Assembly: GCF_003018255.1 (NCBI RefSeq)
Contig: NZ_CP027440.1
Reading direction: 5' to 3' (one strand)
DNA from: Escherichia coli
GTDB taxonomy: Bacteria; Pseudomonadota; Gammaproteobacteria; Enterobacterales; Enterobacteriaceae
DNA length: 64,000 bases
Shown piece after piece: positions 11,685-12,529 of the stretch; position 1 is the stretch's first letter; every line of letters starts with the position of its first letter. Below the pieces are notes generated by a model that was not told the origin of the DNA, made no database searches, and was given only the letters and a program-made list of their open reading frames with translations. Made by a program: the position numbers and the translations under genes.

Positions 11685-11864
11685 ATGATTCGCAAGTATT
11701 GGTGGCTCGTCGTTTTCGCTGTCTTCGTTTTTCTGTTTGATACTTTACTGATGCAGTGGATTGAACTGCTGGCAACAGAAACAGACAAATGCCGCAATAT
11801 GAACTCAGTTAATCCACTAAAACTGGTTAACTGTGACGAACTGAATTTTCACGACAGAATGTGA
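11685..11864 (+). CDS. yhdU: Small membrane protein YhdU
   Basis: 59 aa from ATG 11685 (MIRKYWWLVVFAVFVFLFDTLLMQW); ORF-track start 11658 is a TTG extension. Confidence 0.75.
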   Translation: MIRKYWWLVVFAVFVFLFDTLLMQWIELLATETDKCRNMNSVNPLKLVNCDELNFHDRM

Positions 11865-11866
11865 AT

Positions 11867-12529
11867 TTATATGACACTTAATTCATTCGTTTGATGAATT
11901 AATTTCGTTATGTTTTCATCTGGCATGAACATTCTTAATACGTTATCGACCAGAGCGGGGGCTTGTTTATAAAGATCATAACCCGCCATATTCATTAACC
12001 AGTTTTGAACAATTCCGCTGAAGGCACCATCAATAATAATCATCACAACATCTAAATCGAGATTATTTGCTATACAACCTTGTTGCTGACACGCCTGCAA
12101 TACTTCGCGGAGAGTCTGCGGATTAAAGCCCATCTTTTCGCGTATCACTCCCTCGGCCAGCATCTCATCATTAAATTCACATTTGTGATATAAGATTTTC
12201 AGCAACGCCTGCTGGCGGGGAATTTTGGCAATATATTGCAAACCGACAATCAATTTTTCACGCAATTGCTGAAACGGGTCATGCTCTAACCCAGCGGTCA
12301 AGTGATCCTGGATTAACTCCCGCAATGAAGGCTGTTGCAACCACATCTCATTAAACAGTTGAGTCTTGTTCTCGAAGTGCCAGTAGATAGCGCCACGCGT
12401 AACGTTAGCAGCGTCGGCAATGTCGTTGAGCGTCGTCTTGCTTACGCCATGCTGCGCAAACTGGGCGATGGCAGTTTCAATCAGTTCTTGCCGGGTCTTC
12501 AGGGCTTCAGCTTTGGTTCTTTTTGCCAT
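11867..12529 (-). CDS. envR: TetR-family repressor EnvR (AcrS) of acrEF
   Basis: 220-aa ORF with N-terminal TetR HTH; divergent from acrE. Confidence 0.95.
   Translation of the reverse strand: MAKRTKAEALKTRQELIETAIAQFAQHGVSKTTLNDIADAANVTRGAIYWHFENKTQLFNEMWLQQPSLRELIQDHLTAGLEHDPFQQLREKLIVGLQYIAKIPRQQALLKILYHKCEFNDEMLAEGVIREKMGFNPQTLREVLQACQQQGCIANNLDLDVVMIIIDGAFSGIVQNWLMNMAGYDLYKQAPALVDNVLRMFMPDENITKLIHQTNELSVI

Follow-up and report, generated by a model that had tools for sequence, protein, structure and literature searches.

The question raised by this locus is whether two genes that meet almost stop codon to stop codon are linked in their expression by that proximity. The DNA analysed is a stretch of 64,000 nucleotides (nt) from Escherichia coli (contig NZ_CP027440.1), referred to throughout as the window, in which yhdU and envR converge with their stop codons 2 nt apart. 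yhdU encodes a small membrane protein of the DUF2556 family, and envR (acrS) encodes a repressor of the TetR family. The junction is most probably an ordinary tail-to-tail arrangement that is already annotated, its tightness being a historical accident rather than a regulatory device; we put the probability of this reading at about 0.7.

The coding sequence of yhdU (11685-11864, 59 codons) lies on the + strand, running from the ATG at 11685-11687 to an in-frame TGA at 11862-11864. That of envR (11867-12529, 220 codons) lies on the - strand and ends with a TAA at 11867-11869, which reads as TTA on the + strand. The spacer is the dinucleotide AT at 11865-11866. The separation of 2 nt between stop codons on opposite strands, as given in the preliminary description, is exact to the base on reading the sequence, and the two genes are tail-to-tail neighbours. 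The gene order is dusB, fis, yhdJ and yhdU, followed by envR on the opposite strand and then by acrE and acrF. RefSeq, in which the envR product is named AcrS, shows both genes, again 2 nt apart, in E. coli strain 104, TOP10 and MG1655; in the last of these yhdU (b3263) occupies 3412621-3412800 and envR (b3264) 3412803-3413465. A 1051-nt query (11550-12600) finds a match in 5394 of the 5426 complete E. coli genomes, with 100% identity to strain 104 and 98.2% to the K-12 derivatives. At the junction the window is colinear with MG1655 (three substitutions and no insertions or deletions in 361 nt), and subtraction of 3400936 from an MG1655 coordinate gives that of the window.

Such close spacing is common. 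The sample comprised all convergent pairs of coding sequences annotated by RefSeq in the window and in four 50-kb segments taken arbitrarily from MG1655, amounting to 34 pairs besides yhdU/envR. The median gap is 42 nt, and in 10 of the 34 (29%; Wilson 95% interval ~17-46%) the genes overlap or have stop codons separated by at most 2 nt. The gap is exactly 2 nt in one pair (ypdC/fryA) and 0 nt in cueR/ybbJ and ydcY/ydcZ; a 4-nt overlap occurs in five pairs, and tatD/rfaH overlap by 4 nt. The 2-nt gap of yhdU/envR is not beyond chance expectation, with about three in ten E. coli convergent pairs being as tight. Within the window itself there are two tighter pairs, yrdA (28138-28692, + strand) with yrdB (28668-28925, - strand), which overlap by 25 nt, and mscL (36926-37336, + strand) with arfA (37333-37551, - strand), which overlap by 4 nt. 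These two, together with ypdC/fryA, cueR/ybbJ, ydcY/ydcZ and tatD/rfaH, resemble yhdU/envR in having stop codons no more than 2 nt apart and no intergenic terminator. Processing of the 3′ region matters for arfA, whereas nothing comparable is known for yhdU/envR. At the level of transcripts, overlapping 3′ ends were reported from 276 of 370 convergent operons, with a mean overlap of 286 nt (Conway et al. 2014).

The origin of the junction was sought in the loci of envR orthologues, taking one genome per species and measuring the distance between the stop codons of yhdU and envR. In six other Escherichia loci (two of E. coli, two of other Escherichia spp., and one each of E. whittamii and E. 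albertii) YhdU has 59 amino acids, and the stop codons are again 2 nt apart. The gap is constant within Escherichia although both the spacer bases (gt, at, ct or ac) and the stop codon of yhdU (TGA or TAA) vary. In Citrobacter it is 52-53 nt and in Pseudocitrobacter 43 nt, while the interval between yhdU and envR reaches 844 nt in Salmonella arizonae and 2251 nt in Salmonella diarizonae. YhdU has 54 amino acids in all of these, as it does in Enterobacter, Leclercia and Lelliottia.

The interval in S. diarizonae (locus L015, 3666-5771) contains an intact frame of 701 codons from stop to stop, with 699 amino acids from the first ATG, on the same strand as yhdU and encoding a protein with MHYT, GGDEF and EAL domains. 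The stop codon of this MHYT-GGDEF-EAL gene is 2 nt from that of envR. S. arizonae (locus L013, 3666-4364) carries an internally deleted remnant in which residues 1-147 and ~609-701 are kept, with the same 2-nt ending. The Salmonella pair thus resembles yhdU/envR in having an envR of 220 codons and 2 nt between stop codons, but there the converging partner is a 2.1-kb gene for a cyclic di-GMP enzyme with yhdU upstream of it, whereas Escherichia has lost that gene entirely. In Enterobacter (locus L087, 3305-5386) and Leclercia (locus L085, 3321-5396) the order is fis, yhdU and then an MHYT-GGDEF-EAL gene of ~2.1 kb. The Enterobacter gene overlaps an envR-like TetR gene (230 amino acids) by 58 nt, tail to tail (L087, 5329-5386), so that a close or overlapping junction at the 3′ end of envR is also found with another partner gene. 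No envR-like gene was found within the fetched Leclercia locus, where the MHYT-GGDEF-EAL gene follows yhdU.

Identity between the Enterobacter and Salmonella proteins is 75%. Close orthologues are found in Salmonella enterica, Enterobacter, Leclercia, Kosakonia, Lelliottia and Yokenella, and none among Escherichia or Citrobacter; no DNA resembling a remnant of the gene was found in any complete E. coli genome searched. Presumably it is the orthologue of STM3388. In S. Typhimurium, STM3388 has the same domain architecture (PMC10333796). Since the gene has the same position in Salmonella and in the more distant genera of the Enterobacter type, it would be ancestral and lost in Escherichia, Citrobacter and Pseudocitrobacter, probably by independent deletions. 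The adjacency of yhdU and envR in Escherichia therefore looks like a scar, the two having become neighbours by loss of the gene that lay between them. The Escherichia deletion would have run from the old yhdU stop codon to within ~15 nt of the end of the lost gene. YhdU would thereby have gained its five extra residues, and possibly the stop codon and 2-nt spacing of the lost gene as well; the identical spacing in Salmonella suggests that yhdU may now use that stop codon. In the alignment of the junctions the one resemblance bearing on the origin of the YhdU tail and stop is between Citrobacter and Salmonella, where the envR-proximal end of the Citrobacter spacer is similar to the 3′ end of the Salmonella gene, with CAAAAG at an equal offset to within 1 nt. 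Loss of the MHYT-GGDEF-EAL gene would explain the five-residue tail of E. coli YhdU, and it warns against reading function into the adjacency.

With 2 nt between the genes the transcripts must end elsewhere. The preliminary description held that there is no room for separate terminators, which is correct for the intergenic space, a consensus scan revealing no intrinsic terminator on either strand near the junction. It does not hold beyond that space, because terminators need not be intergenic. Lacking an intergenic terminator, each 3′ untranslated region lies inside the other gene. For complete mRNAs the deduction that the 3′ ends of the transcripts must overlap in antisense is sound, and it fits the coverage of the + strand antisense to envR described below; no discrete 3′ end has been mapped on either strand. 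Term-seq in three growth conditions lists none between MG1655 3412000 and 3413199 (Adams et al. 2021), possibly due to low expression.

RNA from the + strand is sensitive to inhibition of Rho. By DirectRNA-seq with and without bicyclomycin, Adams et al. (2021; PMC7815308, supplementary file 2) identified a Rho-dependent termination region on this strand, with its peak at MG1655 3412709, equivalent to 11773 of the window and inside yhdU. In the 800 nt upstream and downstream of the peak there were 59 and 49 reads without bicyclomycin, and 84 and 470 with it (score 6.7, p = 5e-17). In their table read-through raised by bicyclomycin is present for the + strand only. The untreated reads (49 against 59) indicate that some RNA antisense to envR exists. 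The + strand RNA at 11985-12224, 120-360 nt past the yhdU stop codon and antisense to envR, is rich in C and poor in G, and so compatible with Rho loading; in 80-nt windows it has 24-30% C and 10-21% G (C/G 1.24-2.6), with a GC skew of -0.18 to -0.24. It is untranslated RNA of the composition expected for termination by Rho. The - strand RNA beyond the envR stop codon has a mild excess of C over G (C/G 1.2-1.6 at 11666-11427). Rho-dependent suppression of read-through and antisense transcription was reportedly described by Peters et al. in 2012. The junction resembles the cases of such suppression in the bicyclomycin data (PMC7815308) in the ~10-fold rise of + strand RNA on treatment and in the C-rich, G-poor RNA past the stop codon. 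It differs from known Rho-dependent terminators in having neither a mapped 3′ end nor a mapped Rho utilization (rut) site, and the published data are those of the + strand.

From these data a course of events may be proposed. The yhdU transcripts would start at their own conserved promoter and run into antisense envR. Rho would be the main agent stopping them once the ribosome leaves at the stop codon, and those not released would cross all of envR in antisense. A weak AU-rich hairpin and U tract at 11878-11917 may contribute slightly to termination. The envR transcripts would probably be ended by Rho in antisense yhdU and yhdJ.

The hairpin is formed by an AU-rich palindrome, TTAATTCAT-N7-ATGAATTAA, at 11878-11902 on the + strand. 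It begins 13 nt past the yhdU stop codon, lies inside the last codons of envR, and is a candidate weak terminator. It is followed at 11903-11917 by a U-rich, interrupted tract, UUUCGUUAUGUUUU. The palindrome is a perfect 9-nt inverted repeat, giving an RNA hairpin of 10 pairs, one of them G-C, with a predicted folding free energy (dG) of -6.6 kcal/mol. About 2% of 400-nt stretches with the same base composition would be expected to contain such a repeat. Across Escherichia the loop is variable and the arms are conserved, with a single substitution in MOD1, another in E. whittamii and three in E. albertii. Synonymous sites in the arms compared with E. albertii give one observed change for ~2 expected, which is not significant. 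Folding of both strands across the junction gives z-scores of -1.3 and -1.0, again not significant, and no Rfam family matches between 11300 and 12900 at a permissive threshold. The junction has no G+C-rich stem-loop with an immediate run of U. Palindromes of unrelated sequence occupy the same place in two other genera. Salmonella (locus L015, 3645-3663) has a G+C-rich palindrome of 6 bp, TCAGGC...GCCTGA, that includes the envR stop codon, and Pseudocitrobacter vendiensis has one of 10 bp, GCAGGATAAT...ATTATCCTGC, that spans it.

Could the palindrome itself be the terminator? An intrinsic terminator embedded in envR would stop most yhdU transcripts at ~11905-11917, giving a fixed overlap of ~40-50 nt with envR and leaving Rho as a backstop. 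The position of a perfect repeat 13 nt past the stop codon and just before UUUCGUUAUGUUUU, its rarity in DNA of this composition, the conserved arms with a variable loop, and the occurrence of unrelated palindromes over the last envR codons of Salmonella and Pseudocitrobacter would all be explained. The hairpin is nevertheless weak and failed the consensus scan; in 70-nt junction windows of 13 loci folding is no better than in background windows of the same loci; and Term-seq reports no 3′ end at the site. Moreover, changes in one arm are uncompensated in the other, and the encoded LIH...NEL residues can explain the conservation of the arms, so we consider this reading doubtful. A second possibility is that the converging polymerases halt each other and are released with the help of a nascent stem-loop and trailing polymerases, as proposed for overlapping bidirectional terminators (Ju et al. 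2019; Wang et al., bioRxiv 10.1101/2022.10.23.513370). Those terminators resemble yhdU/envR in being convergent, without canonical intrinsic terminators, and near a palindrome, which here could form a hairpin on either strand. That mechanism, though, is independent of Rho and is most effective when both genes carry heavy traffic, its stem-loop lying in the overlap between highly transcribed genes. At yhdU/envR the + strand is sensitive to bicyclomycin, both genes are weakly expressed, and the palindrome is inside the translated sequence of envR and not between the stop codons. Termination by collision is thus extremely unlikely here.

More consequential would be a functional link. The genes could form a convergent excludon, in which RNA polymerase entering antisense envR from the yhdU promoter reduces EnvR, and transcription of envR in turn reduces yhdU, through polymerase collision or cleavage of the duplex by RNase III; an envelope-stress-induced small membrane protein would then be connected to derepression of AcrAB and AcrEF efflux. 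Convergent excludons (Lasa and Toledo-Arana; PMC12288877) are similarly tail to tail, with a very short spacer and full-length mRNAs that are complementary at their 3′ ends. Such pairs with short spacers are enriched among the published excludons (PMC12288877). The absence of a spacer makes the complete transcripts complementary, RNA antisense to envR is detected and rises ~10-fold when Rho is inhibited, yhdU is inducible, and the 2-nt spacing does not vary within the genus Escherichia. Against this, the pair is outside the published E. coli sets. On looking up the catalogues it is absent from Table 1 of ExcludonFinder, a list of 165 convergent excludons that recur in half or more of 58 MG1655 transcriptomes (PMC12288877), from the tables of double-stranded RNA captured by p19 (Huang 2020), and from those of SMRT-Cappable-seq. 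Overlapping transcription is not recorded there, low + strand coverage being all that is reported, and no reciprocal expression is known. Expression of envR is negligible in laboratory conditions, which has been attributed to silencing by H-NS in Salmonella (PMC9780535). In E. coli acrEF is repressed by H-NS and very weakly expressed (PMC4462101), and an H-NS site is listed in the spacer between envR and acrE (PMC3946193). Because envR is barely transcribed in the laboratory, complementary 3′ ends should rarely be present together, and under ordinary conditions the two genes are not expected to be coupled. The adjacency is also derived, relatives having either another partner for envR or a spacer of 43-53 nt; with ~29% of convergent pairs equally tight the spacing is little informative, and Rho normally limits the + strand transcript. 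We therefore regard a functional excludon as unlikely. A variant in which the antisense RNA is gated by Rho is very unlikely. On that scheme induction of yhdU (by Cpx envelope stress, replication stress or persister-phase growth), or a reduction in Rho activity, would send antisense transcription through the whole of envR, lowering EnvR and helping to derepress AcrAB and AcrEF, and the level of read-through would be set by the AU palindrome conserved within the final codons of envR. If so, an effect in cis on envR might underlie the phenotypes of yhdU deletion mutants, altered ampicillin persistence among them. The earlier suggestion that the arrangement could couple expression of the two genes finds no support, given the frequency of equally tight pairs, the negative catalogues, the near silence of envR and the origin of the adjacency in gene loss. 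A spacing that is common, and an adjacency that is the by-product of a lost gene, give no positive reason to expect coupling.

Several points weigh against the reading of the junction as a historical accident with Rho-limited transcripts. Absence from the catalogues may reflect nothing but low expression under the conditions sampled, so that coupling may yet exist in special conditions. The Rho score is calculated from 800-nt windows, and so gives no position for a transcript end; untreated cells have a + strand signal downstream of the peak that is similar to that upstream (49 against 59 reads), and the + strand RNA induced by bicyclomycin could start at a promoter inside envR and not at that of yhdU. 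The conserved arms and variable loop of the palindrome, together with the low synonymous rate in the tail of envR, hint at a constraint at the nucleotide level that pure accident does not explain. The C-termini of 120 MHYT-GGDEF-EAL orthologues vary widely, and none ends in F[HQY][DN]R[MI] as YhdU does. Descent of the YhdU tail and stop codon from the lost gene is beyond what sequence can demonstrate; the fusion is inferred from the identical 2-nt geometry, and the shared spacing could be coincidence, as a gap of exactly 2 nt is found in 1 of the 34 sampled pairs.

All of this presupposes that both genes are real, which they are, with yhdU under strong purifying selection. YhdU matches Pfam DUF2556 (PF10831) over residues 1-53 of a 53-position profile (E = 2.7e-36, 123.8 bits against a cut-off of 27). 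EnvR has an N-terminal TetR_N domain (PF00440; residues 16-62, 65.3 bits) and a TetR_C_2 domain of the MAATS type (PF08361; residues 84-202, 174.5 bits). An annotation artefact, with no real yhdU and hence no convergent pair, might be suspected of a frame of 59 codons, of unknown function, in an AT-rich and poorly expressed region. Yet the ratio of non-synonymous to synonymous substitution (dN/dS) for yhdU is 0.03-0.10 in comparisons with other genera, with synonymous sites near saturation. Residues 1-54 of YhdU are 78-85% identical between genera (68% in one frameshifted Citrobacter copy), above the 63-72% of EnvR, and the DUF2556 family comprises ~200 sequence clusters across the Enterobacteriaceae. 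With the conserved promoter and the reported regulation and mutant phenotypes added to this, there is virtually no chance that yhdU is spurious; this candidate was rejected, as the conservation pattern effectively refutes it. The Kyte-Doolittle means of YhdU in 19-residue windows are ~1.2-2.25 up to the window at 14-32, with a peak at 8-26.

The ends of the proteins are less constrained. The Escherichia-specific C-terminal tail of YhdU (codons 55-59, FHDRM; 11847-11861) extends beyond the DUF2556 profile, and codons 50-59, which include it, evolve faster than the core, with proportions of non-synonymous differences (pN) of 0.10 and 0.018 respectively. The EnvR tail (residues 203-220; 11870-11923 on the - strand) is outside the Pfam domains, and is the first sequence read by a yhdU transcript past its stop codon. 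Within Escherichia it has a pN of 0.13 and a proportion of synonymous differences (pS) of 0.20, compared with 0.049 and 0.38 in the core. The low pS, in the stretch that holds the palindrome and U tract, may be noise as it is based on 18 codons.

A consensus scan predicts a yhdU promoter at 11619-11646 on the + strand, comprising TTTTCA, a 16-nt spacer and TATATT, the -10 element (11641-11646). The same hexamers with the same spacing are found upstream of yhdU in Salmonella (locus L015, 6117-6144), and the block GTGTATATT aligns without a single change in all six genera compared (Escherichia, Citrobacter, Salmonella, Pseudocitrobacter, Enterobacter and Leclercia). As the block is kept even where the upstream gene is fis and not yhdJ (Enterobacter and Leclercia), yhdU looks like an independent conserved transcription unit. 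The gene is regulated by CpxR (PMC9600279) and induced 8.3-fold by AZT (PMC11228462). It is up-regulated as persisters appear, and yhdU deletions have been used in persister screens. The gene yhdJ, encoding a DNA methyltransferase (10711-11601), is absent in Enterobacter and Leclercia (loci L085, L086, L087 and L088), where yhdU directly follows fis; it looks like an insertion in the lineage of Escherichia, Salmonella and Citrobacter.

As it stands the junction is of a known, annotated and common kind, and matters little. Its practical bearing is on mutants. Clean yhdU deletions, as in the persister screens, also take away anything that lies beyond the envR stop codon, and envR deletions remove the region where yhdU transcripts would terminate. 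Because each 3′ untranslated region lies inside the other gene, efflux phenotypes of yhdU or envR mutants warrant scrutiny for cis effects.

The locus is not universally intact within E. coli. In the urinary isolate EcPF16 (locus L003, NZ_CP054224.1, 4052-4850) IS1A directly follows yhdJ, and yhdU, envR, acrE and acrF are missing. Coverage of the 1051-nt query is below 80% in about 166 of the 5394 genomes with a match, indicating that loss or disruption of the locus recurs in the species. Rare E. coli YhdU variants (proteins P0022, P0028, P0036, P0039, P0053 and P0063) have altered or extended C-termini, with lengths of 60-66 amino acids, from which it appears that the exact position of the yhdU stop codon is not strictly maintained. 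In one of these (P0022) the frame continues past the stop codon to ...DRMWVMTPTY, and yhdU would there overlap with envR.

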